Below, piece by piece: positions 21,522 to 59,981 of a stretch of 64,000 nt of DNA (its first letter is position 1; every line of letters begins with the position of its first letter). The notes beneath the pieces were generated by a model. That model had not been told where the DNA came from. It did no database searches and worked only from the letters and a program-made list of their open reading frames with translations. Origin of the DNA: an uncultured bacterium (GTDB lineage: Bacteria; SAR324; XYD2-FULL-50-16); contig CBFCZY010000003.1 in the NCBI GenBank assembly GCA_965602905.1, forward strand, positions 86,064 through 150,063. The letters run 5' to 3'. The position numbers and the translations under genes were made by a program.

Positions 21522-21526
21522 AATTT

Positions 21527-44060: not shown

Positions 44061-44215
44061 GATTATACTCCTAAATAGATTTTTCTTTCACATTGTATTA
44101 TCACAGAAAACAATCAAAATTTGCAACCTCTTTTGTATCTAAGGTGAATTGTTTGGCAAGCTAGTTTACTCTTCTTTGTCTTTGCGAAAAAATATAATTT
44201 TAGTTATCATTTTAT

Positions 44216-44500: not shown

Positions 44501-44557
44501 ACGTTGCTTTCAAAAATGAGCAAAGATGGAAACATTCTACATTAAAAAATAAACAAA

Positions 44558-44824: not shown

Positions 44825-44873
44825 TTTTTACCCTCCCTTTTTTTTCTTCATATTGAGCGCCTCCCCTTAGAGT

Positions 44874-45800
44874 TTGATGATCGCATTAAATGCAATTTTT
44901 CCTATCTTTGCCTTAATCTTTTTAGGTTGGTTTTTAAGAAGGCAGGAGGTCTTAGGGAAGTCTACGGTCTCGCAGTTGACGGCTATGCTCTATTGGTGGG
45001 CTGTGCCTGCCTTGCTCTTTATAAAGTTTGCCAATTTAAAAAGTCTTTCCGTAGATATTAGCAGTTACTTTTACGCCTTTTTGGTTGCCACCTTTGCGGC
45101 GGTCTTTTTAGGATATATGGCTTCGTTGCTCTTGGGTTTATCTAAGGTGAAAGTAGGGGCGCTAGCCCATATTAGCTATCGAGGAAACCTAGCTTTTGTC
45201 GGTCTTCCTATCGCTTTGTATTACATTACTCAGATTCAGATGCCTGAGCTTGAAGGGGTGATCCTTCTGGCCCTGTCGCCGATGATTATTGTTTATAATC
45301 TCTTGGCCGTTGGTCTTTTAGTGATTCATGGTAGTAGTGGGAGTGGGCAAATTCGCTTAGGCATTTATAAAACAGTCACCAACCCTTTGATCTTGAGTTG
45401 CTTGATCGGTATCTTTTTTCGCCTGCAAGAGTGGACTTTGCCTTTTGCCATCAATCAGACCTTAGTGTCCTTGAGCAGTATGGTGGTTCCTCTTTCTTTG
45501 ATAGTGGTAGGTGCTTCAGTGCAGTTTAAAGGCGGCGGGAAGAATAACTTAGCGAGTTTTTTAGGGGCTGCAATAAAAACATTAATTACGCCTTGGGCGG
45601 GATATTTAGCAGGGAATTATTTTGGGTTAGAACCCAATGCTAGAACTCTATTGATGTTTTTTCTAGCTAGCCCAACAGCGGCCTCGGCCTATATTTTAGC
45701 CAAGCAGTTAGGCTCTGATGCTACCATGACCGCAAATGCAACCCTCCTAGGAACCATTTTAAGCCTCTGTTCTTTTCTACTGATTTTCGCCAGTCTCTAA
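44874..45800 (+). CDS. AEC-family (auxin efflux carrier-like) membrane transporter
   Basis: 308 aa, roughly 10 TM helices, with an AEC-like N-terminus (IFPIFALIFLGWFLRR). Confidence 0.75.
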   Translation: MMIALNAIFPIFALIFLGWFLRRQEVLGKSTVSQLTAMLYWWAVPALLFIKFANLKSLSVDISSYFYAFLVATFAAVFLGYMASLLLGLSKVKVGALAHISYRGNLAFVGLPIALYYITQIQMPELEGVILLALSPMIIVYNLLAVGLLVIHGSSGSGQIRLGIYKTVTNPLILSCLIGIFFRLQEWTLPFAINQTLVSLSSMVVPLSLIVVGASVQFKGGGKNNLASFLGAAIKTLITPWAGYLAGNYFGLEPNARTLLMFFLASPTAASAYILAKQLGSDATMTANATLLGTILSLCSFLLIFASL

Positions 45801-45826
45801 GCTTTCAAGGCTAGCGAAAAAACAGA

Positions 45827-47617
45827 CTAAACAAAAATAGACTGCGCTTTTAACAGAGCAATGATCTTGGCCGTAACTTCACCTTCATTTTCATGAGGTC
45901 TTACGTTCAAGTCCACTTCATATTGGGTAAAGCGATTTTCCCCAACATTGACTACGGTCAAACCAGTAGGCCCGTTAATCTGCTTTAAAAGCTCCAAATC
46001 GTAGCCATCTTCCACGGCTACAACCGTGATAAAGATCATACCAGCGTCAGTCATAAGCCTTGAAAGTTCACCGAGTCTACGGATCTCTTCACTCCTATTC
46101 CCTCCGCCTTGGGACTCAAAATCGCTATCCAAACCAAGGTTCAAGTTGGTGTAGGCCATGAAATAGGGGTTGAGTCTCATATCAAAGAGGATCTTTTCTA
46201 AGGCTGCGGCCATCTTGCGTTTACCTAGACCATGGTCACCAGTAAAAACAATAGAAGTAGCCTTATGCCCTGATTTTTCCGCACGTCTCGCAGAGTTTAC
46301 CCAACCACGAACCCAAGATTCTTCACGTAATTTTACATGTTGCTCGTCTAGGGTTTTATCTGTGGAAACCGCAGCGGTAATGATTCCACCACCTGCGATT
46401 TCATAGTCATCGACTAAAACAAAGCGGCCTGTTTGGTCGATCCTCCCTGCCAAGTCAAAAACAATGGGTTTTACGGCTTCAAAGATACATTCGGCAACAT
46501 CGTGGCGGTCCACTTGGTTTTTATCAAGGGCGCCAATATCACTGGCATCAACGATGGAAACCACTTCAATTAAGCGCACAGGTAGCCGCTTGGCTCCGAT
46601 CTTGAGCTTGTATTTTTTCCCAATGATCAAGGGCGCTTTACCCATCCAAAAAATATTGGATTTAAACCTTCTCGCTGTAATGGGTTGCTCTTGGTCTAGG
46701 CGCACCAATAATTCCCCTGGCTGCACATAAACTTGCGTTTCTAAAGTTAAACCCAAAGCTCTACCCGCCTCAGCGGTGGCTAAAGTGGGAGCGTTAAACA
46801 GCTCGATAGATTTAATTTTAGAGCGCTTCTGGGAAGGGAGGAAAATAACCTCATCCCCAACCTTGGCAACACCTGTTTGAATCGTTCCTGCAAATATCCT
46901 GCGGTCGTCACCTTCTTCTGTAAACTTGTAAACACCTTGCAAAGGCATTCGGAAAGGCAATTTAGTTTTATCGGTATTGTCGTCCTTTTCCAAAGCATCA
47001 ATCTGACCAATCAGGTGATTGCCTTTAAACCAAGTCATTTTACCTGAGGGCTTGACCATGTTTTCGCCTTGGAACCCACTAATGGGGATGAAAGCGATAG
47101 GGTCCAAGTCTAGGTTCTTCAAAAAGGCTCGGTACTCTGTTTCTGTCTTGTTGAAAGACTCTTCTGAGTAATCCACCAAGTCCATTTTATTGACTACAAC
47201 AACGACTTTTTTGAGCCCCAACATGGAAACCAAATAGCCATGGCGTTTGGTGTTTTCTTGGATTCCCTCTTTGGCATCAATGACAATCATTGCAGCTTCA
47301 GCAGCAGAGGCACCTGTGACCATGTTTTTTAAAAACTCAATGTGGCCTGGTGCATCAATGATAATATAATGCCTGCGCTCAGTTTCAAAAAAACAACGAG
47401 CTACATCAATGGTAATCCCCTGTTCTTGTTCATCCTTTAGTGCATCTAGCAGAAAGGCAAACTCAAAGGGTTTGGCGTTACGAGCGCACTGGTCTTTAAC
47501 CTGTTGTAATTTTCCATCAGGAAGGCTGCCAGTATCGGCGAGAAGCCTGCCAATGACAGTTGATTTCCCATGGTCAACATGGCCAACGGTCACAATATTT
47601 AGTCTTTCTTTTTCCAT
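45827..47617 (-). CDS. cysN: sulfate adenylyltransferase subunit 1 (CysN GTPase) fused to a degenerate APS-kinase-like C-terminal domain
   Basis: [10 protein letters not shown]1 motif, DAPGH and NKMD. The C-terminal 170 aa align to CysC, but the P-loop reads GDHGLGKRK instead of GLSGSGKS and the DGD motif is lost. The start is set at the MEKER ATG. Confidence 0.85.
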
Positions 47618-47639
47618 TTTTTTTAAGCCCCTTTTTCGG

Positions 47640-48521
47640 CTACATGTAGCCTTCACGGCGTAACGTTTCTAAACCACCACCATCTTCTTTATCTTGTGCG
47701 CGTCCGCTACGTTCGGCGATATTGGCGAATTTTCCTGTTTTTAGTTCATTGATAATCTCGTCCACATTTTTAGCTGTGGAATCTACGGTGCTAGTACAAG
47801 GATAGCAGCCTAAAGACCTACAACGAGTACCTTCACCTTGATCAAAGTAGAGGTCGATGATTGGAATTTTTTCTCGCTCGATGTATTCCCAAATGTTCAG
47901 CTCGGTCCAATCCAACAGAGGATGTATCCGCAAATGGGTGCCCTTGGCAAAGTCAGTTTTGTACTGGTTCCAAAGCTCTGGTGGTTGGTCGCCGACATCC
48001 CAATCATTTTCTTGGTCACGGGGAGAAAAAACTCTCTCCTTACTGCGGCTTCCTTCTTCATCGGCTCTCGCCCCTACAATAACCCCTGTGTAGGCGTCAG
48101 TGTTAGAATCCAGTTCGTAATCACCTTTCTCATGGTTGAACCTGTATCTGGGCCAGTTGCCAGAAAGGGTATGCTTCAAGGCTGTGGCCTTTAAATTTCG
48201 GCAGCAATTGATGCGGTCTATGTTTCCATCGGGAAAGGTTTCTTTGTTTTTTAAGGCTTCGGCATTTTCGCCGTACACCATGTTGAGTTTCCACTGGGCT
48301 GCCATTTGGTCGCGGTAGGCGATCATTGCTGGCATCTTGTAGTGAGTGTCAATATGGAGCAAGGGGAAGGGCACATGGCCAAAAAAAGCCTTGCGGGCAA
48401 GCCACAATAAAACCGTGCTATCCTTGCCGACAGACCAAAGCATAACAAGACTTTTAAAGTCCCTGTAGGCTTCACGCAAAATATGCACACTCTTGGCTTC
48501 TAGTTGGTCTATATGATTCAT
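47640..48521 (-). CDS. cysD: sulfate adenylyltransferase subunit 2
   Basis: PAPS-reductase-like fold [17 protein letters not shown]. 293 aa. Confidence 0.9.
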
Positions 48522-48569
48522 TTTTAATTCTCAGTTTCTAGACATTTTAGTCTTAAATTAATTTCAATT

Positions 48570-49274
48570 CTATTTTACAGGTCGGTTGTGTAGGCCACAT
48601 TCTTTGTGTTCTGGCGCTTCCCACCACCACCTTCCGCTTCTAATATCTTCTCCCTCGCTCACGGCTCGGGTGCAAGGTGCACAGCCTATGGAAGGAAAAC
48701 CTTGGTCGTGAAGACGATTATAAACCACCTTGGTTTCTTTCACCTTGGCCCAGAGCTCCTCTTCTGAGCAGGCAAACAAAGGATTGATTTTATATATCTT
48801 ATTGCCCGCATCCCACTCAATGGGTTCCACGTCTGCACGGGTTGCACCTTGGCCAGCCCTGAGGCCAGTAACCCAAGCATCCAAACCACCGAGCACACGT
48901 TGCAAGGGGTTAATCTTTCTGATCTTACAACAGAGCTTGCGATTTTCTAAGGAATCATAAAAAAGATTTGGCCCTTTGTTGGCAATCATCTCTTCTAGCT
49001 CCCCAGTATCGGGAGTATAAACCTCATAGGTTACGCAGTAGCTAGACATAGACCGTTGCATGGAATCATAAGTCTCTTGGAACAAGCGCCCTGTATCTAG
49101 CGTGAAAATCCGAAAGTTAGGGATATCCGCTACAAAGTGAGTGAGCAATTGGTCTTCCACACCAAAACTGCTGGCAAGGGCGACTTTAGTGCCAAAGGTT
49201 TTGTTCGCCCAAAGGAGGATATCCTTTGGGCTTAACCCTTCCAGTTGCTTTTTATAGTTTTCAAGCTGATCCAT
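48570..49274 (-). CDS. cysH: adenylylsulfate (APS) reductase, thioredoxin-dependent, Fe-S type
   Basis: The CC pair (KLCCKIRK) plus CAPC and ECGLH is the Cys set that ligates a 4Fe-4S cluster in APS-specific reductases. The start is set at the internal ATG because the tracked start is TTG. Confidence 0.8.
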   Translation of the reverse strand: MDQLENYKKQLEGLSPKDILLWANKTFGTKVALASSFGVEDQLLTHFVADIPNFRIFTLDTGRLFQETYDSMQRSMSSYCVTYEVYTPDTGELEEMIANKGPNLFYDSLENRKLCCKIRKINPLQRVLGGLDAWVTGLRAGQGATRADVEPIEWDAGNKIYKINPLFACSEEELWAKVKETKVVYNRLHDQGFPSIGCAPCTRAVSEGEDIRSGRWWWEAPEHKECGLHNRPVK

Positions 49275-49276
49275 TT

Positions 49277-51655
49277 TTAGACCTGTGCCTTTTTGATTAC
49301 TACAGCCCAATGACCATCGTCGGCCTGTTCTTGGCTTAAGATTTCATGACCCTCCAACTCAACGGAGCCTGGAACGTTTGCAATGGGTTCCCCGTCATCG
49401 AGTAAAATTTCTAAAATTTCACCTACTTTCATCGGGTCCAGTGCAATTTTTGTTTTCACAAAGTTCATCGGGCATTTTACGTCCCTAAAGTCTTTATAGA
49501 CAGCTCTTTGTTCCAAACTTACAGCAGTACCTTCACTAATGGCTTCTTCCTCTTCTTGGTTCTGGATGAGGTCATCCAAATGAAAGCGGAGGCTATCGTC
49601 CATGCTGTGATACAGATCTAGCATTAATTTTGCTAAGTCCAAAGCTGGCTGCAATTGGCCAGATACCTTATGATCAGAAGCGCTTAAAGCCGACTCAACC
49701 AATGATTGGAAGTCCTTTGAAACAATGCGACCGCCGATGAAGTCTTTAATAAAGGCTTCAAATACTTGGGTGTCGCTTTCCGCTTCAATTCCTTGGGTTA
49801 CGAGCAAGGACCGAGAAGCATGGAGGGTTAAGCGGTAAGCTGCTATGTCCTCTGGAATTTCTTTAACTTCCAAAGCCTTCTGGATGCTTCTGATTTCAGT
49901 GAAATCATAATCAATCATATCGTATAGGCCAGCGGAGCATTCTGCCTTCTTACCCTTGAGTAGGCTAAACCTGCTGTCATCAGACCAGTCATGGTAATAG
50001 TCGGCATTAGCATCTAACTCAGGCATTGCCTTGTCATACTTTTGAGCCAATTCTTTGATCATAAAGAAGGCAGGCTCACTTTTTAAATATTCTCTAAAAT
50101 CGCCCAACTCAGCTTTGTTGGCTTTGTAGTGCTCAAAGAAATCACCAACTAAAGCGGGGATATCCTTGGCCGCAGCCGTTGCTGCCCTTGCTGCCGTTTC
50201 AGTAGTACCGTCACCTAAGTGACCACCAAGCTGAATGACATAGGCTGGGTAAAGATGCTGGTTGCGCTTTAGTGCCTTGCCGAAAAAACCAATGTCAGCG
50301 ACATGGTTATTGGAGCAAGCGTTTGGGCAACCTGAAACATTAAAACTAATTCCAGCAAATTCTTCTGTATCTAAGTTTCTTTTGATCAACTCTGTCTGCA
50401 CAGCCTCAGTTAAAGGTCGGGCTAACGTTACCCCAAGAGTACAGTTGGCGGCACCAGTACAGGCGATCATGCTTCCAAAAAAGACAGGTTCAAAAGCGCC
50501 TGTGTCTAGGGTCTTTAAAAAATTAAATACATTGCCTAGGTATTCTGCTGGGATGTTTCTCAAGTTAAAGTTTTGGTCAGGGCTCAGGCGAATTACATTT
50601 TCACCAAAGTCCTTTAAAAACTCACCCATTTTTTTAGCATCGGAATTTTTTAAGATACCAAACTTTAAAGGGATACGAACTTGAGATAGTCCCTCTTGTT
50701 TTTGACCCTTTACATATCTTTGTTTCCACAGATTAAAGGCTTCTAAATCACTCGCTTCTTCAACTTTAACTGCCGCTGATACTTGGGCCTCATTTGGGAA
50801 ATCAGACAAGTCTAATTCTAGGTCTCGATCCTGTTGGAGCAGGGCGTAGTATTTGTAAAAGAGAGCCGTAAAGTCTTCTTGGCCCATGCGTTCTACAAGC
50901 CATTTTATCTTGGCTCTATTGCGTTGTTTCCTGTTTCCATTTTCGTCAAAAAGAACCTTGATGGCCTTGGCTACATAATAGACTCGGTGCTCAGGGACAA
51001 AGTCCAACAAGACTTTACCATACTTAATGGCTGAGCCCGTACCGCCACCGACATAGACCTTAAAGCCCTTTTTTCCATCTTGGATTTTTGCAAGGAAACC
51101 TAAGCAGGTTAGGGTGGCCTTTGCCGAGTCGTTCTTATTGGCAGAAAAACTGATCTTCAGCTTTCGGGGCATGTTATAGGAATCTGCTTCTGCGATGAAT
51201 CTAGTGGTTAGCGCCATGGCGTAGGGAGCTACGTCAAAAACATCGTCAGGGTTCACGCCTGAGTCATAAGATACAGACATGTTTCTGGTAGTGTTTCCAC
51301 CGCCAGCTCGACCTGAAAGGCCAACAGATTTGAGTTCATTGGTGACTGTGATCAAGTCTTCCAACTTTAAATAAGAAAGTTGGAATTCCTGTCTCGTCGT
51401 GGCGTGAAGGCGGTCGCATGCAAATTTCTCAGATACCTCAGCAATTTTGACAAGTTGGGCAGGGGTCATAGCGCCTTGGGTGGCCCTTGCTCTCATCATA
51501 AAGGTTCCAGATTCTCTCTGCTCATAGATTCCGTGTGCAACACGAATGGCTTTGAACTTAGGTGGGGCAATTTTGCCCTGGTTAAAATCTGCAATTTGCT
51601 CTTTAAACTTGGCTATGTCTTGGTCCAAAGTTTCTGGTAGCTGGTAAAAATTCAT
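49277..51655 (-). CDS. assimilatory sulfite reductase hemoprotein (siroheme/4Fe-4S) fused to an unassigned middle domain and a C-terminal TusA-like domain
   Basis: Siroheme/Fe-S Cys motifs CTGAANC and SGCPNAC. The C-terminal 70 aa (DVKCPMNFVKTKIAL...GHEIL...VVIKK) resemble TusA. 792 aa. Confidence 0.85.
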   Translation of the reverse strand: MNFYQLPETLDQDIAKFKEQIADFNQGKIAPPKFKAIRVAHGIYEQRESGTFMMRARATQGAMTPAQLVKIAEVSEKFACDRLHATTRQEFQLSYLKLEDLITVTNELKSVGLSGRAGGGNTTRNMSVSYDSGVNPDDVFDVAPYAMALTTRFIAEADSYNMPRKLKISFSANKNDSAKATLTCLGFLAKIQDGKKGFKVYVGGGTGSAIKYGKVLLDFVPEHRVYYVAKAIKVLFDENGNRKQRNRAKIKWLVERMGQEDFTALFYKYYALLQQDRDLELDLSDFPNEAQVSAAVKVEEASDLEAFNLWKQRYVKGQKQEGLSQVRIPLKFGILKNSDAKKMGEFLKDFGENVIRLSPDQNFNLRNIPAEYLGNVFNFLKTLDTGAFEPVFFGSMIACTGAANCTLGVTLARPLTEAVQTELIKRNLDTEEFAGISFNVSGCPNACSNNHVADIGFFGKALKRNQHLYPAYVIQLGGHLGDGTTETAARAATAAAKDIPALVGDFFEHYKANKAELGDFREYLKSEPAFFMIKELAQKYDKAMPELDANADYYHDWSDDSRFSLLKGKKAECSAGLYDMIDYDFTEIRSIQKALEVKEIPEDIAAYRLTLHASRSLLVTQGIEAESDTQVFEAFIKDFIGGRIVSKDFQSLVESALSASDHKVSGQLQPALDLAKLMLDLYHSMDDSLRFHLDDLIQNQEEEEAISEGTAVSLEQRAVYKDFRDVKCPMNFVKTKIALDPMKVGEILEILLDDGEPIANVPGSVELEGHEILSQEQADDGHWAVVIKKAQV

Positions 51656-51664
51656 GCCTTTCCT

Positions 51665-52057
51665 TTAAATTATAGTGAACTCCTCTGGAGTCACTTTTTC
51701 AGATGCGATTTTAAAACTTTTTGCATAGGGAGTCTCCTCTGCAAAAGAGATAATTACATATGAAATTGTAGGGTCGTAAGCTAGAGCAATATCTTCGATA
51801 CTGGGCCTAGCTGGTGTTTCTGGGTGGCTGTGGTAAACAGCCGCTACTTGGTAGCCTGCGTCTCTAATGGCGCGAACAGTATTAAACTGCTCTTTTGGGT
51901 CCATGGAGTAATGTTCTGGACTTTGGTCCGTATTATAAAGCTCGTAGTGAGCGATAACAACTCCATCTTTGGATGCCAGATAGCCACAACACTCGTTGGG
52001 CAGCTCTTTTGCCCCTTGGGCAATTATGGCATCAACCACTTCCTTTTTTATGTCCAT
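51665..52057 (-). CDS. JAMM/MPN+ metalloprotease (Mec+/HcyD/QbsD-like)
   Basis: E..CG and HSHPETPARPSIED JAMM motif. 130 aa. Confidence 0.8.
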   Translation of the reverse strand: MDIKKEVVDAIIAQGAKELPNECCGYLASKDGVVIAHYELYNTDQSPEHYSMDPKEQFNTVRAIRDAGYQVAAVYHSHPETPARPSIEDIALAYDPTISYVIISFAEETPYAKSFKIASEKVTPEEFTII

Positions 52058-52872
52058 TAGTGCTTTGCTGTAATATCACAAAGAGGCATTTCCGCTTCTT
52101 CTAATTCTGTGATAATAGGGTTAGCGCCACAAATGGGGCAATCATCCTGCTTCTTTAACTTGATCTTACGAAATTCCATTTCTTTGGCTTCGAAGGTCAA
52201 TAGGGAATTGGTAAGGGGCGTGCCCACACCTGTAATCCACTTTAATGCTTCGGCAGCTTGCATGGTTCCTAGCATTCCTGCGATTGCGCCCAAGACACCT
52301 GCTTGTGAACAAGTAGGAACAGCGTTGGCTGGAGGTGGCTCACGGAAAACACATCTGTAACAGGCAGATTCACCAGGGATAACCGTCATGGTCTGGCCCG
52401 TAAAGCGTAAAATTCCACCGTGACTGTAAGGCTTGTTTTCCATTACACAGGCATCGTTGATCAAGAATTTAGTCCCAAAGTTATCTGTTCCATCAACAAT
52501 AAAGTCGTAAGGAGCAATGATCTCTTTGATGTTTTTGTGATCCAAGTAAGTCTGGTAAGTCTCCACCTTCACGTCTGTGTTAATGGCTTCCATTTTTTCT
52601 TTCGCAGAATCCACCTTCAATTTATCCACATCCTTAGTAAAATGGATGATCTGTCGTTGTAGGTTGGAAAGGTCGACCACATCGTTATCCACAATGCCAA
52701 TTGTCCCAACACCTGCTGCTGCAAGATATAATGCGATAGGTGCGCCGAGGCCACCTGCACCAATGATTAGAACCTTTGATTCTAAAAGCTTGCTTTGGCC
52801 CTTAACACCAACATCCTTTAAGATGATGTGCCTTGAGTAGCGTTCTAGTTGTTCTTCTGTAAAATCTATCAT
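52057..52872 (-). CDS. ThiF/MoeB-family E1-like adenylyltransferase (no rhodanese domain)
   Basis: Nucleotide-binding motif GAGGLGAP and Zn-ribbon Cys pairs CYRC and CPICG. Confidence 0.8.
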   Translation of the reverse strand: MIDFTEEQLERYSRHIILKDVGVKGQSKLLESKVLIIGAGGLGAPIALYLAAAGVGTIGIVDNDVVDLSNLQRQIIHFTKDVDKLKVDSAKEKMEAINTDVKVETYQTYLDHKNIKEIIAPYDFIVDGTDNFGTKFLINDACVMENKPYSHGGILRFTGQTMTVIPGESACYRCVFREPPPANAVPTCSQAGVLGAIAGMLGTMQAAEALKWITGVGTPLTNSLLTFEAKEMEFRKIKLKKQDDCPICGANPIITELEEAEMPLCDITAKH

Positions 52873-54101
52873 AATGTCTCCAGTGCCTTTGCAATGTCTT
52901 CTTGTAAATCAATAAAGTCTTCAATCCCTACACTCAAACGGAGTAATGTGTCGGGAACGCCCATTTCAGCCTTCTTCTCTGGTGAATACTCACAGAAAAT
53001 GGTTGAAGCTGGGTGAATGATCATTGATTTATTATCGTTTAAGTTTGTGGTGCGCTTGATTAATGTCAAGGCATCCATAAATTGATAACACTCCTCTTGG
53101 GAGTTTAAATTTAATGTCAGTATTCCACCAAACCCATTTGGAAATTGCTCTTTGGCAATTTCGTGGTGGGGGCAGGATTTTAATCCAGGGTAGTTTACAT
53201 GAGCCACTTTTGGGTGGTCTTCAAGGTATTCTGCTAAGCTTTGAGCATTGTTGCAACTGGCTTTAATGCGAAGGCTTAAAGTTTCTAAACCTAAAGCTTG
53301 CTGCGCCGCACTGTGGGGGCTTAAGCATGCGCCTAAATTTCGATAAACCTGGGTTCTTAATGTAGCCATTAAAGCCATAGGCCCCATTTTTCGGGCCTTG
53401 TCAGCTAGCTTAACAGAAGTCTTCCAATCAAAGTTTCCATTGTCGATAATCACACCACCAACGGAAGTTGCCCCGCCAGACATATATTTGGTCGAGCTGA
53501 TAATTTCCACATTTACCCCATGCTCCTTTGAGTTAAAAAGGTAGGGTGTGGTGACGGTACAGTCTGCTGCAAAGGGTACCCCTGCGGCTTTGGTGATTTC
53601 AGCAATTTTCTTGATGTCCACCACTTCCAACTGGGGATTGGTGATGTTCTCGCAAAAAACTAATCTTGTATTTTCATCAATGGCAGCCTTAACTTCTTCA
53701 GTGTTGGTCATATCCACATATTTTACATCGAGGCCCCAAGGTTTTAGGCTGTGCTCAAATAAGCTTACCGTATTTCCAAAAAGATTCTTCGAAGTTACTA
53801 CGTTGGTGCCGGTTTCGCATAAGGTCATAACCAAATTTGAAATGGCAGCCATGCCACTTGAAAGTGCCAACACGGCAAATGAGCCGCTAATGAGCCTTAC
53901 CTTTTGTTCAAAGTCTTCTACAGTGGGGTTGCTGATTCTGGTGTAGGCATGGGCAGGTTTTTTACCTTCAAAGGCCAGTTGCAGGTCACGAGAAGTTCCC
54001 AGTTCAAAGGATACCGTTTCATAGACAGGTACACGGAGTGCCCCATGTACATCTTGTTTGAAACGTATTCCGTGGATTGCCTTAGTGTTAAAGCCTTTCA
54101 T
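52869..54101 (-). CDS. metY: O-acetylhomoserine sulfhydrylase-family PLP enzyme
   Basis: Cys/Met-metabolism PLP fold with the STKYMSGG lysine block. 410 aa. Confidence 0.8.
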   Translation of the reverse strand: MKGFNTKAIHGIRFKQDVHGALRVPVYETVSFELGTSRDLQLAFEGKKPAHAYTRISNPTVEDFEQKVRLISGSFAVLALSSGMAAISNLVMTLCETGTNVVTSKNLFGNTVSLFEHSLKPWGLDVKYVDMTNTEEVKAAIDENTRLVFCENITNPQLEVVDIKKIAEITKAAGVPFAADCTVTTPYLFNSKEHGVNVEIISSTKYMSGGATSVGGVIIDNGNFDWKTSVKLADKARKMGPMALMATLRTQVYRNLGACLSPHSAAQQALGLETLSLRIKASCNNAQSLAEYLEDHPKVAHVNYPGLKSCPHHEIAKEQFPNGFGGILTLNLNSQEECYQFMDALTLIKRTTNLNDNKSMIIHPASTIFCEYSPEKKAEMGVPDTLLRLSVGIEDFIDLQEDIAKALETL

Positions 54102-54130
54102 GTGATTACCAGAGTCTTGATTGTTCTAAA

Positions 54131-54340
54131 TTATTTACTACCACCACCCATGAAGTATAAAAAGTCTACTTCACTGCCAGCTGCTAGAGTGGTTGATTCA
54201 TAGGCATCCTTGTCAACGAATTCGCCGTTCAGTTGAACCGAAACCATCTCAGGATTGTCTACATTATTTTCTGTTAAAAGTTGAGCGATGTTCATGCCTT
54301 CTGTGATTGATTTGGCTTCGCCGTTTACTTTAATGTCCAT
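54131..54340 (-). CDS. ThiS/MoaD-like sulfur carrier protein with a C-terminal GG-GSK extension
   Basis: 69 aa. IKVNGE...LNGEFV...GSEVDFLYFMGGGSK. The beta-grasp pattern matches ThiS, and the Gly-Gly is followed by three extra residues. Confidence 0.7.
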   Translation of the reverse strand: MDIKVNGEAKSITEGMNIAQLLTENNVDNPEMVSVQLNGEFVDKDAYESTTLAAGSEVDFLYFMGGGSK

Positions 54341-54616
54341 TGTTTCTCCTAGTCTTTACCTGATAAAGTTGATCAAGTTAGTCAAGTTATAAAAGATATG
54401 GCCTGAATTGTCAAGCCGTAATCCCCATACGTAGGGATGTAGAAAATATAACTCGTTGCAAAAAAAAAGGCTAGACCTTTAAGATTCAAGGAGATTTAAA
54501 GAAAAAAGAAATGGAATCAGGGAAGGACTTTCGGGAAGTTTTCTGTAACTTTAGTAGTTAATACTACCAAAGCTAAAGAGGGTGTGCCTGAGAGGCTACA
54601 CCAAGAAGAGCAAAAT

Positions 54617-55033
54617 TTAGATGTGATACATCACTGTTTCTTGGAGTTTTTGCTGCTCTAAAATCAAGTCGGCTAAAGAAATTTCTAGGTCGTGTTTTAG
54701 CGTCTTTTCCATCTTTTCAAAGAGGTTATAAATGGCATCCACTTCTCGCTCTGTGCCAGAGGTTAGCTGGATTCCACCTTCTAAAACTTCGATCAGCTCT
54801 AAAATAGTCAAGTTATTTGGGTCTTTTGCTAGTTTATACCCGCCCTTTTTCCCTCTTACCGAGTTGACTACTCCAGCATTCACAAGACGGTTGAAAATCT
54901 GCTCTAAATATTGCCGAGGAATTTGTTTCTGCTGGGCAATTTCTTTAATTTGAATGAGACCACGCCCATAATGTTCGCCTAAGGCGAGTACGGCCTTGAT
55001 TCCATATTTACATTTTGCACTAATAGATAACAT
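54617..55033 (-). CDS. Rrf2-family transcriptional regulator (CymR-like, no Fe-S cysteine triad)
   Basis: wHTH IKEIAQQKQIPRQYLEQIFNRL. The only Cys is at position 8. Confidence 0.75.
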   Translation of the reverse strand: MLSISAKCKYGIKAVLALGEHYGRGLIQIKEIAQQKQIPRQYLEQIFNRLVNAGVVNSVRGKKGGYKLAKDPNNLTILELIEVLEGGIQLTSGTEREVDAIYNLFEKMEKTLKHDLEISLADLILEQQKLQETVMYHI

Positions 55034-55036
55034 AAT

Positions 55037-55495
55037 TTACCTTCTTGCAGTGGCTGCATCTTTAAGTTCTTTCCCTTTGGCCCAAGAGCGTTTTTCTTCT
55101 TCTGTTTCAACCAAAAGGGGAGGGATTGGTTGAGGCTTGCTATTTTCGTCAACGGCCACAAAGGTAAAGAAACCTGTGTTGGCTAACCTGCGTACATTAT
55201 TTTCATGTACAGCAGTGCGGTAGACCTGCACCCTGACGACCATACTACTTCGCCCAGTGTAAATTACTTGTCCCTGGAAATCTAAAAAATCACCAACAAC
55301 AGGTGAAATTGCAAAGTCTAAAGCCTCTACGCTAGCTGTAACAGCGGCCATTTTGGCGTACTGAAAAGCAGAGTAATAGGCTGTTTTATCCATCCATGAC
55401 ATTAATTGACCACCAAATAGAGTGCCGTGGTGGTTAATATCAGCAGGGAAGATCACTTCGATGTTGCTGAGGACTTCTGATTTTTGATATTTCAT
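55037..55495 (-). CDS. acyl-CoA thioesterase (hotdog fold, YciA-like)
   Basis: FPADINHHGTLFGGQLMSWMD motif. Confidence 0.75.
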   Translation of the reverse strand: MKYQKSEVLSNIEVIFPADINHHGTLFGGQLMSWMDKTAYYSAFQYAKMAAVTASVEALDFAISPVVGDFLDFQGQVIYTGRSSMVVRVQVYRTAVHENNVRRLANTGFFTFVAVDENSKPQPIPPLLVETEEEKRSWAKGKELKDAATARR

Positions 55496-55559
55496 AAGGA
55501 CCTTTATTTTCTTCTATTGTAGAGTTGTTTTTAATTTTATGCCAGTTTTACTTTGTAAG

Positions 55560-56999
55560 TTAAGATACAAGCTGATTTTTTACCATTTGGATGCACTTTT
55601 CCTTACCAAAAATTTCGACAACGTTAGCCAACTCGGGGCCATGTTCTGTAAGGGTAATGGCGATTCTCATAGGAATCCATAAGGACTTGCCCTTAATGCC
55701 TGTTTTTTTCTGGACTGCCTTCATGACAGGGAAAAAGTTTTCTGCCGTAAAGGTTTCTAAGTCAGAGGATTCTTCTAAAAAGGCCTTAAATACAATCTGA
55801 GGTTCTTCACCCTTAACCATTTCTTTTAAGGAGTCTTCGGTTAACTCAGGGGACTCGTTTAAAAACAATTCTAAAGGTGTTCCGATTTCGCTCAAGAGGT
55901 TTAACCCCTCTTGTACCAAGCTGACCATTTTCTCTAATACTTTTGGGTCTAGGGCTTTGGCTGTTTCAGGTAGGTAAGGCTGCAACATTACCATCAAGTC
56001 CTGGACCTGCAACTTTTGAATGTACTTTTGGTTCATCCAGAGTAATTTTTGCTGGTCAAATACGGAGCCAGCCTTGCCAATGCGTTCTACAGAAAACTCA
56101 GAAATTAATTCTTCCATAGAAAACATTTCTCGTTCATCGCCTGGGTTCCAACCGAGTAGAGCCACAAAGTTAATTAGGGCGTCAGGTAAGAATCCTTTTT
56201 TTCTATAGTCTTCTGTGGCAACGTCGCCTTGTCTTTTAGAAAGCTTACTGCGGTCAGCATTGAGCAACAGAGGCAGGTGGGAAAACTGCGGGATATCCCA
56301 ACCAAAGTACTCATAAAGCTGAATGTGTTTTGGTGTCGATGGTAACCACTCTTCACCTCGGATCACATGGGTGATTTTCATGAGGTGATCATCTACGACG
56401 CTTGCCAAATGGTAAGTTGGAAAGCCGTCAGTCTTTAGTATCACCTGATCGTCAATTTGGTTGGGCTTGAAGATGACTGTGCCACGAACCATGTCAGAGA
56501 CTTTATAGTCCCCTTTAGAATGGATGATTTTCATGCGGATCACGTGAGGCTCACCAGCGCTTAACCGAGCATCGCTTTCTTCTGACTTCAGCCTTCTACA
56601 ACGGCCGTCGTATCTGGTCGGTTGCTTGCGTTTAATTTGGTCTTCTCGCATAGCGTCCAACTCTTCTGATGAGCAAAAGCAGGGGTAAGCATTGCCATCT
56701 TCTACTAATTTTTCCACATGAGTTTTATATAGGTCTAATCTTTCCGACTGAACGTAAGGACCATAGTCGCCGCCTTGGGTTGGGCCTTCATCAAAGTTCA
56801 AACCTGCCCATTCCATGGAGCTTAAGAGGTTTTCTTCCGCCCCTTCCACTTTTCGTGCTTGGTCCGTATCTTCAAAGCGAAGAATTATTTTTCCCCCATT
56901 TGCCTTGGCAAAAAGGTAATTAAAAAGGGCTGTGCGAAGCCCACCAACATGAAGGTAACCTGTGGGGCTGGGTGCAAAACGAACTCGAATATCTGACAT
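55560..56999 (-). CDS. gltX: glutamate--tRNA ligase
   Basis: RFAPSPTGYLHVGG (HIGH-like) and KLSKR (KMSKS). Confidence 0.9.
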   Translation of the reverse strand: MSDIRVRFAPSPTGYLHVGGLRTALFNYLFAKANGGKIILRFEDTDQARKVEGAEENLLSSMEWAGLNFDEGPTQGGDYGPYVQSERLDLYKTHVEKLVEDGNAYPCFCSSEELDAMREDQIKRKQPTRYDGRCRRLKSEESDARLSAGEPHVIRMKIIHSKGDYKVSDMVRGTVIFKPNQIDDQVILKTDGFPTYHLASVVDDHLMKITHVIRGEEWLPSTPKHIQLYEYFGWDIPQFSHLPLLLNADRSKLSKRQGDVATEDYRKKGFLPDALINFVALLGWNPGDEREMFSMEELISEFSVERIGKAGSVFDQQKLLWMNQKYIQKLQVQDLMVMLQPYLPETAKALDPKVLEKMVSLVQEGLNLLSEIGTPLELFLNESPELTEDSLKEMVKGEEPQIVFKAFLEESSDLETFTAENFFPVMKAVQKKTGIKGKSLWIPMRIAITLTEHGPELANVVEIFGKEKCIQMVKNQLVS

Positions 57000-57205
57000 T
57001 TCTTCCTTAAAAAATCACCCATGAGGTGCTTTGTGGTTTAACTTTTGAATAACTCTATAAGAGAAAGCTTATGGGGATTAGCAAAAAAAATAAAGTTCCC
57101 ATTTTAAAAAGCTATAAAAACAAGTGATTAATGTCTTTAAACAAGTCGAATGCAAAGCAAAATTAGGCAACTCCGCCTATTTGTGACTGCTTCTGGAGGA
57201 AAAAA

Positions 57206-58222
57206 ATGCACCAATATTTAGAAATGGTTCGAAACGAAATCGAATCTGCCGCTGGACAAGAAAAATACTTAGCTAGTGCCCTTTTTCTCAAGGTATTTAG
57301 AGAAGTACCCTATGAGGATGACGGTGATTTTGAACTTACAGACAAAGCGGGATTCGAAGAAATTCAAAATCGTGTAACCAATATATTAAGGTCTCCTAGT
57401 GACTTTGACCCTAAAGAAGAGTTGCTTTCATGGCAGATTGCCGTGCTCCGTCAAATGGCGAGAGACTTCTATAACATCTGGGTGGACTATAAAGACGAGC
57501 GTTTTGGTGCAAGTGATATCTTTTCTGATGGTGAATCTTGCATGTCTTTAGAGGCTTCATTAGAAAAAATTAACGAAGATCCAACTGAAAACTATTCGGC
57601 TATCTTGGAAATTGAACAGACCTTAACTAAATTGGCTACCAGCCCAACTCAGTTTGTAACTGAGCTAGATAAATTTTGGTCTTTCAAGGGTGCCATCAGT
57701 TCTAAAGGGGATGGAGTTACAGCCTTTACGCAAAAGAGAATTGATTTAGAAAAGAATGGAACTATGATCGCTGCTGTTGTTCGTGGTATGAAAGAAGTTT
57801 CAAATAGATGTGAGCGAAATGCGAGACAGCTTCCCGGTGCTCACCATTTACTATGGATCAATGCTCATATTTTAGTTGAATCCTTCACCAATGCTTTTGA
57901 GTCCTTTTTGGAATTTGAATACTTGGATAATATTGAGCTATCTTTGCACCACTGGTTAGATACACTCTTTCCACAGCGCATGATTGCAAACTTGCCAAAC
58001 CCTTTGCACCAAAGCCCAACACATCACGGGATCATTGCTAATTTGACGCAAGCGACCCAGTGCATGGTGCAGTATGTTGCCCATGGCAATCAAGCTTTTG
58101 ACCAGAGAGATGAAATCATTGTCCCTCACGTCCTTGAAGCCTTAGAGCGAGTAAAAAGAATTTCTTTGAAGAATATCACGGCTTTGCAAAGACAAGAGAT
58201 GCAGACCAAAGCATTCTCTTAA
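57206..58222 (+). CDS. hypothetical protein (338 aa)
   Basis: Long ORF with no recognisable domain. Confidence 0.5.
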   Translation: MHQYLEMVRNEIESAAGQEKYLASALFLKVFREVPYEDDGDFELTDKAGFEEIQNRVTNILRSPSDFDPKEELLSWQIAVLRQMARDFYNIWVDYKDERFGASDIFSDGESCMSLEASLEKINEDPTENYSAILEIEQTLTKLATSPTQFVTELDKFWSFKGAISSKGDGVTAFTQKRIDLEKNGTMIAAVVRGMKEVSNRCERNARQLPGAHHLLWINAHILVESFTNAFESFLEFEYLDNIELSLHHWLDTLFPQRMIANLPNPLHQSPTHHGIIANLTQATQCMVQYVAHGNQAFDQRDEIIVPHVLEALERVKRISLKNITALQRQEMQTKAFS

Positions 58223-58406: not shown

Positions 58407-59981
58407 ATGCTGGAATTTTTTTCCTTGGCTCAAGATAAATCAGGAAATTTGGAAAGAGTATCCTATAAATTAGGTCTCTTAGAGTTACTTTTTGCCTTTT
58501 TATCGCTAAATGAAAGCTGCAATGGGGAAAAAAGACAGATCTTGAAAAATATCCAAGCTGGCCTTGAAGAGCATCTAAAATATTCTGACCCTAATGTAAG
58601 GCGTGAAAAAAACTTCCGTTTTGCTACCAGTCGTTGGCTAAGATTAAAGGATCTGGCTAATTTTATTTTAAGCGACGATGGCAAGGCAGACTTGCGAGTT
58701 AAAATTGCTAGCATCCTAGTTCAGGCCTCTTCCATTGAAAATAAATGGGATAAAATTAAGCAAACCCTGACTGCCGATCTCAATGAAGAAAGCTTTACCA
58801 GCCTTTCTCAAGCATACTCCTTTGAAACGGGGGAAATGCACCCAGTTTTAGAGTGGATCGCCCTTTGTTTTTTAGAGCAAGACCCAGAGCCACCACCTCC
58901 AAATTTAAGATTAGAACTGGTGCGAGGTGAGTTCCCTAAAAGCTTTTGGGCCGCCAGAAAAGGCTCTTACCATAAGCCCAATCCCTTTTGGTTGCCAAAA
59001 AATCCACTTTGCCATGCCGTAAATTTGGGGCAAGAATTGACCTGTCTTTTGTTGCAGACAGAAAAAACATTACAAAAAATTAACAACAATAGCCCCTTGG
59101 GCAGACCCAGTTCAATCACTTTAGACTTACCCGGTGCCAAAGAGGAAAAGGGACAGCTTTCTTTGATCCCTGAAACACCAGCGGAAACCTTTTTAAAACT
59201 CCAAGGCTTGATCGAAAAAAAGTTAGGGGCCAACGGAGTTCGGCATTTATTTGGAATTTTACGACAGGTTGCAAAGGCAGAAAATACCAGTTTCTTCTTT
59301 GACTATTTCTCCCATGCCGAGTTGTTAGGTTACCACAAAGACCAAGTCAATAAATACGAGACAGAAGAGAAAAATCTTGAAGAGGTGCTTTCTATTTTAA
59401 ATAAAGTAGAGGTTAAGCGCCGCTACATTAAGGAAAAGCCCATGCTGGAACGAGCGACTCCACTTTTTAATGGAATGACCAAGCATTACCGAGGTATTTC
59501 GAAAAAGGTGGCAGGCCAAGAGTTGGCTCTTGATGCTTTTGTGCTTGGTGATGGTACCAGTTTAAGGCTCGGTGCTCATCTGAACTTGGTGCCCATGCGT
59601 GCCTTTTTGGAAGACACTAAAAAACATAAATTTTTGCTGCCCCTTGCAGCCTACTTGGCTGGCTCTTGGGTTTTGGAATTTAACAGTAATCGTGGGCACT
59701 TACAAAAAAACACGAAAGAGCTTTTGGAAGGTTGCGCCCTAAAAATTGCCCCCCAAGCAAAAAGAACCATTTTAACAAAGTTGCAGTCTGAGCTAGATTA
59801 CCTGAAAGAAAAGGCCTATGTTGGATCAATAAAAGCGCTAAAGGTGGAAGCATTAGAATCTAGTGCAACTGACCCTTACTTGCAAAAATTTGAAATCACG
59901 CCACCACCTGCCCTCTTGCAAAACATGCAAGCTTCCTATGCAGATGCTGGCCACGGGGCAGCCTCGGGTATGCTCTTTTAG
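58407..59981 (+). CDS. hypothetical protein (524 aa)
   Basis: Long ORF with no recognisable domain. Confidence 0.5.
   Translation: MLEFFSLAQDKSGNLERVSYKLGLLELLFAFLSLNESCNGEKRQILKNIQAGLEEHLKYSDPNVRREKNFRFATSRWLRLKDLANFILSDDGKADLRVKIASILVQASSIENKWDKIKQTLTADLNEESFTSLSQAYSFETGEMHPVLEWIALCFLEQDPEPPPPNLRLELVRGEFPKSFWAARKGSYHKPNPFWLPKNPLCHAVNLGQELTCLLLQTEKTLQKINNNSPLGRPSSITLDLPGAKEEKGQLSLIPETPAETFLKLQGLIEKKLGANGVRHLFGILRQVAKAENTSFFFDYFSHAELLGYHKDQVNKYETEEKNLEEVLSILNKVEVKRRYIKEKPMLERATPLFNGMTKHYRGISKKVAGQELALDAFVLGDGTSLRLGAHLNLVPMRAFLEDTKKHKFLLPLAAYLAGSWVLEFNSNRGHLQKNTKELLEGCALKIAPQAKRTILTKLQSELDYLKEKAYVGSIKALKVEALESSATDPYLQKFEITPPPALLQNMQASYADAGHGAASGMLF

Follow-up and report, generated by a model that had tools for sequence, protein, structure and literature searches.

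A probable HcyS-type homocysteine synthesis operon of the Wolinella succinogenes kind in an uncultured SAR324 bacterium

Results

A gene cluster of an uncultured SAR324 bacterium very probably represents an operon for homocysteine synthesis on a carrier protein (HcyS type) as known from Wolinella succinogenes, which would combine sulfate reduction with delivery of the sulfur to homocysteine through a protein thiocarboxylate. The pathway is not new and has already been characterised; its SAR324 copy is genuine and well conserved. The analysis showed which genes are present, that their motifs are intact and that they are orthologous to those of the characterised system; it also showed conserved synteny, natural fusions and a conserved candidate operator. 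The analysis covered a window of 64 kb, which is the whole stretch of DNA, with the following elements:

54617..55033, minus strand: Rrf2-family transcription regulator, 138 aa, upstream of hcyS
54386..54414, minus strand: putative promoter-like element TTGACA-17 nt-TATAAC, read from the sequence
54369..54385, no strand assigned: 17-bp palindrome TTGACTAACTTGATCAA, consensus TTGAYYA-N3-TRRTCAA, candidate Rrf2 operator
54131..54340, minus strand: hcyS, ThiS/MoaD-fold sulfur carrier precursor, 69 aa, C-terminus FLYFMGGG-SK
52869..54101, minus strand: metY, O-acetylhomoserine (OAH) sulfhydrylase of the carrier-dependent clade, 410 aa; carrier dependence predicted
52057..52872, minus strand: hcyF, ThiF/MoeB-type E1 adenylyltransferase without rhodanese domain, 271 aa
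51665..52057, minus strand: hcyD, JAMM/MPN+ zinc metalloprotease, 130 aa
49277-51655, minus strand: sir, sulfite reductase with C-terminal TusA domain, directly downstream of hcyD
50066..51655, minus strand: sir catalytic part (residues 1-530), NirA-type siroheme/[4Fe-4S] sulfite reductase
49511..50035, minus strand: middle domain of sir (residues ~541-715), a family-specific HEPN-like bundle of helices
49289..49492, minus strand: sir TusA/SirA sulfur-relay domain (residues 722-789), C-terminal, with invariant C728-P-M-N-F
48570..49310, minus strand: cysH, APS/PAPS reductase, by its motifs of the iron-sulfur APS-reductase type; start probably ATG 49274
47640..48521, minus strand: cysD, sulfate adenylyltransferase small subunit
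45827..47656, minus strand: cysN, sulfate adenylyltransferase GTPase subunit with degenerate APS-kinase-like C-terminal domain; start probably ATG 47617
44216-44500 and 44558-44824, plus strand: two tandem plant-type 2Fe-2S ferredoxin genes (Pfam Fer2, E=8e-14 each)

Organization of the locus

On the minus strand the order hcyS-metY-hcyF-hcyD is followed by sir-cysH-cysD-cysN, and according to the ORF list these genes are tightly packed or overlap. The junctions from hcyS to cysN measure +29, -4, -1, +9, -34, +48 and -17 nt for the longest ORFs, the overlaps of -34 and -17 vanishing with internal ATG starts for cysH and cysN. Such close spacing fits a single operon. An earlier, sequence-only reading of this DNA had described a ThiS-like carrier, MetY, an E1 and a JAMM protease in tight succession on this strand, and the ORFs lie exactly where it had put them; the position of sir, cysH, cysD and cysN immediately downstream of the four-gene module was confirmed by ORFs and profile matches. 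Within the 64-kb window no genes for a homoserine acyltransferase or a methionine synthase were found, gshB is present, and no siroheme synthase gene adjoins the operon.

The carrier and its partner enzymes

Profile searches bore out the proposed family of each product of the module (ThiS, Cys_Met_Meta_PP, ThiF and Prok-JAB). HcyS matched Pfam ThiS with E=1.6e-12 and passed TIGR01683 with 61.7 bits (cutoff 37.45). Since the latter is the curated equivalog model of thiamin thiS, a second role of HcyS in thiazole synthesis is possible. Its three glycines (residues 65-67) are followed by the two-residue tail Ser-Lys; the W. succinogenes HcyS, also of 69 aa and ending with FLYFMGGG-A, is 48% identical. 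Among 66 HcyS homologues the FMGGG motif is near-invariant and precedes a variable tail of 0-6 residues, 65 of them having one to six residues after GGG, which is itself invariant. As judged from its sequence, HcyS is a precursor that would need removal of the C-terminal tail, and Wolinella HcyS has reportedly been described as a precursor with an alanine tail. A ribosome-binding site (AGGAG) of hcyS is located at 54346-54350.

MetY is a fold-type I enzyme (Cys_Met_Meta_PP, E=3.6e-109) with K205 as the PLP lysine. Its top PDB match, 3RI6 (W. succinogenes MetY), scored 421.7 bits and thus 126 bits ahead of the next one (295.9). MetY shares 48% identity with 3RI6 and just 35% with the other MetY paralogue of Wolinella, and a reverse search from 3RI6 recovered the same MetY clade including SAR324 proteins. 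No canonical OAH/OAS sulfhydrylase model gave MetY a score that reached its curated cutoff. Furthermore, a loop after residue ~228 is ~10 residues shorter in MetY and 3RI6 than in 8SF5 and 7KB0, two solved OAH sulfhydrylases, the latter being MetY of Thermotoga maritima. The sequence comparisons argue that MetY is an orthologue of the carrier-dependent Wolinella enzyme rather than of a sulfide-using MetY. Because the identity to Wolinella is only moderate (48%), the substrate could differ, i.e., be O-succinylhomoserine or O-acetylserine in place of O-acetylhomoserine. In 2011, Krishnamoorthy and Begley reportedly showed O-acetylhomoserine to be the substrate of the Wolinella enzyme. For this enzyme, bisulfide is described as being replaced by a thiocarboxylated carrier protein (PMC8191291).

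HcyF matched Pfam ThiF with residues 12-246 of 271 (E=8.3e-84), no further domain being detected, and is 65% identical to Wolinella HcyF. It contains the motif GAGGLG (38-43), the CxxC pairs 171/174 and 245/248, and C188, with which the cysteine of the CRTAGV motif of E. coli ThiF, the top PDB match, is aligned. The MoeB subfamily cutoff was reached (NF004281, 280.6 vs 266) and the ThiF cutoff nearly so. The MoeZ model covered HcyF with model positions 14-270 of 392 only (306 bits, cutoff 647). HcyD (Prok-JAB, E=4.8e-24) possesses intact zinc-site motifs, comprising E22 and H76-x-H78-x7-S86-xx-D89 (HSHx7SxxD). It is 48% identical to Wolinella HcyD, and its top PDB match was 2KKS (E=9.7e-31).

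Sulfite reductase and sulfate activation

The catalytic part of Sir matched NIR_SIR (E=8.1e-39) and NIR_SIR_ferr (E=4.1e-26), and its best PDB matches were ferredoxin-dependent nitrite and sulfite reductases. The cluster/siroheme cysteines are C399, C405, C443 and C447, and the identity to Wolinella Sir is 38% in this part. An invariant motif, E572-C573-x-A575-G, precedes the HEPN-like domain, and the TusA domain has its conserved active-site cysteine near the domain N-terminus. Wolinella Sir likewise carries the helical middle domain (with an ECSAG motif) and a C-terminal TusA. The TusA domain had been overlooked in the sequence-only reading, as had the palindrome at the hcyS promoter (see below).

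CysH scored 252 bits with NF002537 (cutoff 154) and 228 bits with the APS reductase model TIGR02055, just under the cutoff of 235; its motifs are CC127-128, CxxC210-213 and ECGLH237-241. CysD (NF003587, 350.8 bits, cutoff 195) is 63% identical to its Wolinella counterpart. CysN passed TIGR02034 (360 bits, cutoff 336), its APS_kinase match being limited to profile positions 3-80 of 152. In this domain the P-loop reads GDHGLGKR and has lost the Ser/Thr position, whereas CysN of Wolinella (459 aa) is devoid of an APS-kinase-like domain. The tandem ferredoxins, whose genes are both conserved at the corresponding position in L002, the closest SAR324 genome, are candidate electron donors for Sir.

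The Rrf2 regulator and its putative operator

The regulator matched Pfam Rrf2 (E=1.9e-28) and passed the Rrf2 superfamily model (96.7 vs 73.3). Its position just upstream of hcyS was predicted correctly by the sequence-only reading; the label CymR-like applies only loosely, as the CymR equivalog NF047409 was the best NCBIfam match with 107.2 bits, under its cutoff of 195. The protein has a single cysteine (C8) and therefore lacks the three cluster-binding cysteines of IscR/NsrR. An Rrf2 gene is situated upstream on the same strand in 30 out of 63 assessable related loci.

The putative promoter was not listed by a consensus promoter scan because the last base of its -10 hexamer is C. The palindrome abuts this hexamer 28 nt upstream of the hcyS ATG, and is the sole match in the window. 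With at most one mismatch allowed, 19 of the 68 regions upstream of hcyS contain it, while 0.15 would be expected from shuffles. Over 1.19 Mb of related loci, 33 matches were detected. Of these, 21 fall into the 250-bp stretches preceding hcyS, which make up 1.4% of the bases, and eight of the remaining 12 reside just upstream of the Rrf2 gene. The palindrome at the hcyS promoter is conserved across phyla. Probably, it is an operator of the Rrf2 protein, which in turn is probably the repressor of the operon.

Conservation of the gene arrangement

Synteny was determined on a sample of 80 loci, which had been retrieved by way of MetY relatives and belong to over a dozen phyla; counts were taken only where the flank was sufficient. 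The neighbourhood is kept in these relatives: hcyS lies directly upstream of metY in 68 of 76 assessable loci, while the E1 and JAMM genes follow downstream in 64 of 72 and 58 of 65, respectively. A TusA was found in 42 of 50 related loci. The order hcyS-metY-E1-JAMM recurs in approximately 90% of the 80 loci, an arrangement far beyond chance. Moreover, natural fusions of HcyS with MetY (P0101, P0273, P0312, L057) and a fusion of HcyS, Sir and TusA (P0149) were encountered. Among the related loci, hcyS was undetected beside the clade MetY in six (L010, L011, L016, L024, L027 and L064). A second, more canonical MetY paralogue is frequent in genomes of the set.

Comparison with known systems

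The HcyS/HcyF/HcyD/MetY pathway was reportedly characterised biochemically in W. succinogenes by Krishnamoorthy and Begley (J Am Chem Soc 2011). All window proteins compared with their Wolinella counterparts matched one to one with 33-65% identity, and at this level of orthology the HcyS/HcyD/HcyF/MetY assignment of the sequence-only reading stands. Both clusters encode a 69-aa carrier in which FMGGG is followed by a removable tail, an E1 devoid of rhodanese, a JAMM protease of 130 aa, and Sir with helical middle and TusA domains; their MetY enzymes belong to one clade, and both contain cysH, cysD and cysN. The contig whose MetY is 100% identical to 3RI6 has the order cysH-cysD-cysN-hcyS-hcyF-hcyD-sir(TusA)-cysG with metY divergent; thus, cysH-cysD-cysN precede hcyS in Wolinella, whereas in SAR324 metY separates hcyS from hcyF within the operon and the assimilation genes come last. 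Other differences concern the HcyS tail (Ser-Lys in SAR324, Ala in Wolinella), the degenerate APS-kinase-like CysN domain, present only in SAR324, and the siroheme synthase gene, which does not adjoin the SAR324 operon. In addition, the SAR324 locus has the Rrf2 regulator and candidate operator upstream and the two ferredoxin genes downstream, and its host is uncultured. The 2011 studies of Krishnamoorthy and Begley and of Tran et al. (3RI6 structure) are cited in PMC5764234 and PMC8191291, the latter also being the source for the use of the thiocarboxylated carrier by Wolinella MetY.

The neighbourhood has been known since 2006 and the biochemistry since 2011. In the comparative genomics of Iyer et al. 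2006 (PMC1779556) it was described with SirA/TusA as a constant member and an E1 without rhodanese, and the SAR324 locus fits this description exactly in both respects. Geobacter, Wolinella, several Firmicutes, Chlorobium and others were listed there, SAR324 being absent; the Rrf2 operator and the helical domain between Sir and TusA are absent from that description (PMC1779556).

The CysO/Mec+/MoeZ/CysM system of Mycobacterium tuberculosis, to which the module had also been likened, proved to be an analogue only. A ThiS-fold carrier, thiocarboxylation by an E1, PLP-dependent addition to an activated amino acid and JAMM-mediated release are common to both; the families differ, as the SAR324 PLP enzyme is a fold-type I MetY instead of CysM and the E1 has no rhodanese domain, TusA being placed on Sir instead. 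Membership in the CysO/CysM pathway was rejected, since the cluster has neither a fold-type II CysM nor a MoeZ-type rhodanese on the E1. The predicted product is homocysteine in SAR324 and cysteine in the CysO system.

TTGAYYA-N3-TRRTCAA is not known to resemble the Bacillus CymR box. Like CymR, the cysteine repressor of Firmicutes, the SAR324 regulator has the Rrf2 fold without cluster-binding cysteines and adjoins, and probably controls, a sulfate-assimilation/OAH-sulfhydrylase operon. The CymR regulon of Clostridium acetobutylicum includes an operon for O-acetylhomoserine sulfhydrylase and sulfate assimilation (PMC4845359).

Discussion

The chemical steps assigned to the SAR324 operon are all taken over from the Wolinella work. 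CysD and CysN would convert sulfate to APS, CysH APS to sulfite, and the ferredoxin-type Sir sulfite to sulfide. HcyD would cut Ser-Lys off the HcyS precursor, and the exposed C-terminal glycine would be adenylated by HcyF. AMP might then be displaced by sulfur, coming from free bisulfide or from Cys728 of the Sir-fused TusA domain, to yield HcyS-COSH. By means of its PLP, MetY would combine this thiocarboxylate with O-acetylhomoserine, and an S-to-N acyl shift would give HcyS-homocysteine, the amide of which would be hydrolysed by HcyD to homocysteine and regenerated HcyS. The Rrf2 protein probably represses the operon via the palindrome abutting the -10 element.

It is conceivable, though rather doubtful, that Cys728 and Cys573 form an obligatory sulfur relay on Sir. 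Sulfur reduced at the siroheme would then be held by the protein as a persulfide and handed straight to adenylated HcyS, the second of the two cysteines serving to resolve the acyl-disulfide. If so, homocysteine would obtain its sulfur from sulfate with no passage through free sulfide, and the relay would be an assimilatory counterpart of the DsrAB-DsrC hand-off. Free bisulfide was reportedly used, and was enough, in the 2011 Wolinella reconstitution; the pathway may thus be able to do without the TusA step.

MetY might also use mainly free sulfide, the carrier branch being an accessory or back-up, e.g., under low sulfide or oxic conditions. The PLP chemistry would be identical, and a few related loci have no hcyS next to the clade MetY; nevertheless this is unlikely given the distance of the clade from canonical MetY (under all curated cutoffs, loop deletion common to the Wolinella enzyme), the near-obligate synteny with the carrier machinery and the second, more canonical MetY paralogue often held by genomes of the set. 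Quite unlikely, too, is the synthesis of cysteine from the carrier thiocarboxylate and O-acetylserine or O-phosphoserine, as by CysM with CysO in M. tuberculosis. Bifunctional OAH/OAS enzymes exist in the OAH-sulfhydrylase family, as several NCBIfam model names indicate, the best match of the regulator is the cysteine regulator CymR, and gshB resides in the same window; against this, the PLP enzyme is of fold-type I and orthologous to Wolinella MetY, and the cluster harbors no CysM/PALP-type enzyme.

That HcyS and the E1 are an ordinary thiamin (ThiS/ThiF) or molybdopterin (MoaD/MoeB) pair merely neighbouring sulfur-assimilation genes is very improbable. Their scores with TIGR01683 and NF004281, the nearly reached ThiF cutoff and the PDB match to E. 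coli ThiF would agree with it, but the window, in its annotated parts, contains no thiG, thiH, thiO, thiE or moaE, the terminal glycines of the carrier are followed by a tail, a dedicated JAMM protease accompanies it, and hcyS is found beside metY in most loci and fused to MetY or Sir in several proteins. There is hardly any likelihood of ubiquitin-like conjugation, with the carrier attached to target lysines and the JAMM protein acting as deconjugase (archaeal SAMP/UbaA/JAMM1, Thermus TtuB). HcyF does hit the model of the SAMP-activating E1, and HcyD that of the desampylase as well as archaeal JAMM1 in the PDB, yet with 331.6 and 66.5 bits the two model scores remained well under the curated cutoffs of 450 and 130. 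What is conserved alongside is MetY, TusA and the enzymes of sulfate reduction rather than genes for the proteasome or tRNA thiolation.

Carrier-bound homocysteine synthesis is a known pathway that annotation captures poorly; according to a 2017 report it was missing from both KEGG and MetaCyc (PMC5764234). By automatic naming, the carrier would become ThiS; MetY bears the label 'PLP-dependent transferase' and Sir the label 'sulfurtransferase TusA family protein'. With such labels, reconstructions of SAR324 and many uncultured lineages could wrongly show a methionine gap or a spurious thiamin gene. With its genes in one fixed order, the module is found in relatives that belong to over a dozen phyla, and the putative operator conserved across phyla now offers a candidate site for the Rrf2 regulator. 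As Sir of the characterised Wolinella system bears the same HEPN-like and TusA extension, the role of TusA in thiocarboxylate formation is directly testable.

Organization of the gene cluster

The ThiS-like carrier (HcyS), the O-acetylhomoserine (OAH) sulfhydrylase-family enzyme MetY, the E1 (HcyF) and the JAMM protease (HcyD) named in the sequence-only reading were found exactly where it had placed them, on the minus strand. Its assignment of the first ORF as ThiS-like was borne out by two profiles.

Genes of the cluster (window coordinates, strand, description)
54617-55033, minus, Rrf2 regulator gene
54131-54340, minus, hcyS, ThiS-like carrier, 69 aa (Pfam ThiS E=1.6e-12; TIGR01683 61.7 bits, above the cutoff of 37.45)
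52869-54101, minus, metY, 410 aa (Cys_Met_Meta_PP E=3.6e-109)
52057-52872, minus, hcyF, E1, 271 aa (ThiF E=8.3e-84; without a second domain)
51665-52057, minus, hcyD, JAMM protease, 130 aa (Prok-JAB E=4.8e-24)
49277-51655, minus, sir, continuing directly from the hcyS-metY-hcyF-hcyD run
48570-49310 (longest ORF), minus, cysH, internal ATG start at 49274
47640-48521, minus, cysD
45827-47656 (longest ORF), minus, cysN, internal ATG start at 47617

The claimed connection of this module to sulfate assimilation also held, as sir, cysH, cysD and cysN lie directly downstream. Using the longest ORFs, the junctions from hcyS to cysN measure +29, -4, -1, +9, -34, +48 and -17 nt; with the internal starts of cysH and cysN, the largest remaining overlap is 4 nt. 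Because the junctions are tight and the sole sizeable gap (276 nt, between the Rrf2 gene and hcyS) precedes hcyS, the sequence from hcyS to cysN reads as a single operon.

The JAMM motif of HcyD (E22 and H76-S-H78-x7-S86-xx-D89) is intact, as are the E1 motifs GAGGLG, two CxxC zinc pairs and C188 within CSQAGV, which aligned opposite the cysteine of CRTAGV in Escherichia coli ThiF. MetY possesses the PLP lysine (K205), C399, C405, C443 and C447 of Sir are all intact, and CysH exhibits the iron-sulfur APS-reductase pattern (CC, CxxC, ECGLH). Residues ~467-609 of CysN (45830-46258) make up a C-terminal domain resembling APS kinase, apparently inactive; the Pfam profile matched over its first half only, and the P-loop reads GDHGLGKR. 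A degenerate domain would be consistent with an APS-reductase-type CysH, which needs no PAPS.

The nearest relatives belong to the SAR324 cluster. Proteins of one SAR324 metagenome-assembled genome are 94% (MetY) and 90% (Sir) identical to those of the window; its contig L002 aligns colinearly with the stretch between ~58.2 kb and 43 kb of the window (84% DNA identity). The ENA metagenome contig L001 is 99.8% identical to window 62225-50763 and then diverges inside sir (L001 11466-12316, against window 50763), passing into an opposite-strand GGDEF gene that cuts Sir at 308 aa. The break stems either from a chimeric assembly or from a rearrangement at strain level. That the cluster in the window is itself chimeric, a possibility raised by L001, was rejected given the colinearity of L002 through the whole operon.

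The operon end is adjoined (44216-45800) by a tandem pair of plant-type 2Fe-2S ferredoxin genes and by the gene of an AEC-family membrane transporter (Mem_trans), the latter convergent with cysN. The trio is kept in L002, but none of the more distant loci showed it. Possibly, the ferredoxins donate electrons to Sir and the AEC protein transports a sulfur compound. Elsewhere, two ORFs without a Pfam match (338 aa, 57206-58222; 524 aa, 58407-59981) lie between gltX and fmt and are both kept in L001. The window also harbors gshB (glutathione synthetase, 15985-16920), a ccmE-ccmF-ccmG-ccmH cytochrome c maturation cluster (18581-21964) and, in its remaining part, housekeeping genes and several sigma-54 and two-component regulators. 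Neither metX, metE/metH, cysK nor cysE was found within the 64 kb.

Relationship to the Wolinella succinogenes system

Among solved structures, MetY gave its best match with 3RI6, the OAH sulfhydrylase of W. succinogenes (421.7 bits, 48% identity; next entry 295.9 bits). When the 3RI6 sequence was used as query, the 100% identical protein P0241 came first, followed by the same MetY clade including SAR324 members. On L082, the contig of P0241, genes for DUF2061, CysH, CysD, CysN, ThiS (69 aa), ThiF (272 aa), JAB (130 aa), Sir (764 aa, with a TusA domain) and siroheme synthase follow each other on one strand; metY is divergent. Identities to the Wolinella counterparts are 48% for each of HcyS, MetY and the JAMM protease, 65% for the E1, 44% for CysH, 63% for CysD and 48% for CysN; those of the Sir parts are 38% (core), 33% (middle domain) and 60% (TusA). 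A second Wolinella MetY paralogue shares 35% with the window MetY. Unlike the window CysN, the Wolinella protein lacks the APS-kinase-like domain.

MetY did not reach the curated cutoff of any canonical OAH/O-acetylserine (OAS) sulfhydrylase model (e.g., 378 versus 495 bits for TIGR01326), which explains the generic database names of its clade. Compared to two solved OAH sulfhydrylases, 8SF5 and 7KB0 (Thermotoga maritima MetY), the loop after residue ~228 is ~10 residues shorter in both the window MetY (residues ~227-240, window 53382-53424) and 3RI6, the removed segment being PDPSYHG in 8SF5 and 7KB0. The shortening may leave room for the carrier tail.

The Wolinella carrier ends with FLYFMGGGA. 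In the work of Krishnamoorthy and Begley from 2011, the precursor was reportedly HcyS-Ala, whose alanine is taken off by HcyD, and the observed end fits this precursor. The same study is cited for the thiocarboxylate pathway in PMC5764234. Wolinella MetY was described as unusual, since it takes sulfur from the C-terminal thiocarboxylate of a carrier protein and not from bisulfide (PMC8191291). In 2006, Iyer, Burroughs and Aravind described the neighbourhood, in which carrier, JAB, sulfate-assimilation genes and O-acetylhomoserine sulfhydrylase occur together; the E1 was always without a rhodanese, and a SirA protein was present in every case (PMC1779556).

Conservation of the module

Searching species-representative genomes with an alignment of MetY yielded 80 loci from SAR324, Lambdaproteobacteria, Acidobacteriota, Thermodesulfobacteriota, Calditrichota, Fibrobacterota, Omnitrophota and others, among them Chlorobi, Spirochaetota, Planctomycetota, Bacteroidota and Elusimicrobia.

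Features near metY (loci with the feature/loci with a flank long enough to assess it)
hcyS immediately upstream, 68/76
E1 gene immediately downstream, 64/72
JAMM gene downstream, 58/65
TusA gene or domain downstream, 42/50
Sir downstream, 22/50
cysD no more than 10 kb away, 13/40
Rrf2 gene upstream, same strand, 30/63

The counts for hcyS, E1 and JAMM genes confirmed that the neighbourhood is conserved among relatives. At loci without Sir, many of them Desulfobulbales-like, the JAMM gene is followed by a free-standing TusA gene; therefore, TusA is a firmer member of the core module than Sir. Among the carriers, (D/E)FLYFMGGG is near-invariant and precedes a variable stretch of 0-6 residues at the end. 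This is how a precursor processed by a co-encoded protease would be expected to look. Parts of the module are also linked to one another by independent natural fusions in other organisms: HcyS-MetY (~480 aa; proteins P0101, P0273 and P0312, and locus L057, 9788-11230), HcyS-Sir-TusA (860 aa; P0149) and a Sir bearing a tandem pair of TusA domains (~860-880 aa; P0123, P0135 and P0144).

MetY proteins of the same clade (52-60% identity) without a detectable adjacent hcyS occur at L010, L011, L016, L024 and L027 (Acidobacteriaceae and others) and at L064 and L080. At some of these loci a divergent JAB-like gene alone lies upstream. The carrier branch may have been lost in these cases, or a divergent carrier may serve instead.

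Extension of the sulfite reductase

Sir (792 aa) consists of three parts: a NirA-type ferredoxin-dependent siroheme reductase (residues 1-530), a helical HEPN-like middle domain and a TusA domain. An exhaustive search of 1.84 billion proteins disclosed the middle domain in 213 representative clusters only; in full-length proteins it resides at positions ~540-700, the Sir-TusA context, and Sir-TusA proteins of ~780 aa form more than 120 clusters. With the middle domain alone, Pfam gave a single, sub-threshold match to an ADP-ribosyltransferase (18.1 bits, cutoff 23.4), which was rejected as spurious. Apart from the cofactor site, Sir has two invariant cysteines, Cys573 ahead of the HEPN-like bundle and Cys728 in TusA, which suggest a thiol relay. 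The literature searched contained no specific description of the Sir-TusA fusion or of the pathway in SAR324, and the accessible literature is silent on such a relay.

Regulation

Within the 276-nt gap lies a promoter-like pair, TTGACA-17-TATAAC, directly followed by a 17-bp palindrome, TTGACTAACTTGATCAA (54369-54385), which is unique in the window. A scan for consensus promoters and terminators gave counts not above those of shuffled sequences and passed over this pair owing to its last base. No riboswitch or leader RNA was detected upstream of hcyS using Rfam (E up to 1, 44000-57500).

The consensus TTGAYYA-N3-TRRTCAA (<=1 mismatch) was present in 19 of 68 hcyS upstream regions, compared to 0.15 expected. 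In 1.19 Mb of related loci it matched 33 times, with 21 matches no more than 250 bp upstream of hcyS and eight others just ahead of the Rrf2 gene (29/33 in total, from many phyla). Since the matches concentrate there and the Rrf2 gene is co-conserved, we infer that the two belong together and that the palindrome is probably the operator of the Rrf2 protein; its position would predict repression. The regulator contains a single cysteine and is thus a cluster-less Rrf2 protein like CymR. To this extent its designation as CymR-like was loosely justified, but it fails the CymR equivalog cutoff. In Clostridium acetobutylicum, an operon for OAH sulfhydrylase and sulfate assimilation is controlled by an Rrf2 regulator (PMC4845359).

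Proposed pathway and alternatives

By analogy with the Wolinella work, from which the chemical steps are carried over, sulfate would be converted to APS by CysDN, to sulfite by CysH and to sulfide by Sir, with the two ferredoxins as possible donors. HcyD would cut Ser-Lys from HcyS, whose terminal glycine would then be adenylated by HcyF. HcyS-COSH would form with sulfur arriving as bisulfide or possibly via Cys728 of TusA. MetY would join HcyS-COSH to OAH, and after an acyl shift HcyD would release homocysteine.

The module might instead be a cysteine-forming variant, MetY might mainly use sulfide, or the carrier might belong to an ordinary thiamin or molybdopterin carrier pair or to a SAMP-like conjugation system. 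Each of these explanations is improbable, given the enzyme family, SAMP model scores below cutoff, the lack of thiamin genes within the window and the near-obligate synteny. The carrier-thiocarboxylate interpretation is supported by the Wolinella orthology, the synteny and the fusions, which like the gene content were directly observed.

Thus, the SAR324 module is a further case of a pathway whose neighbourhood has been known since 2006 and whose biochemistry was reportedly established in 2011 with Wolinella. The new points are modest: the module's wide occurrence in a fixed gene order, a candidate Rrf2 operator, and the HEPN-like and TusA extension of Sir, which includes a second invariant cysteine.
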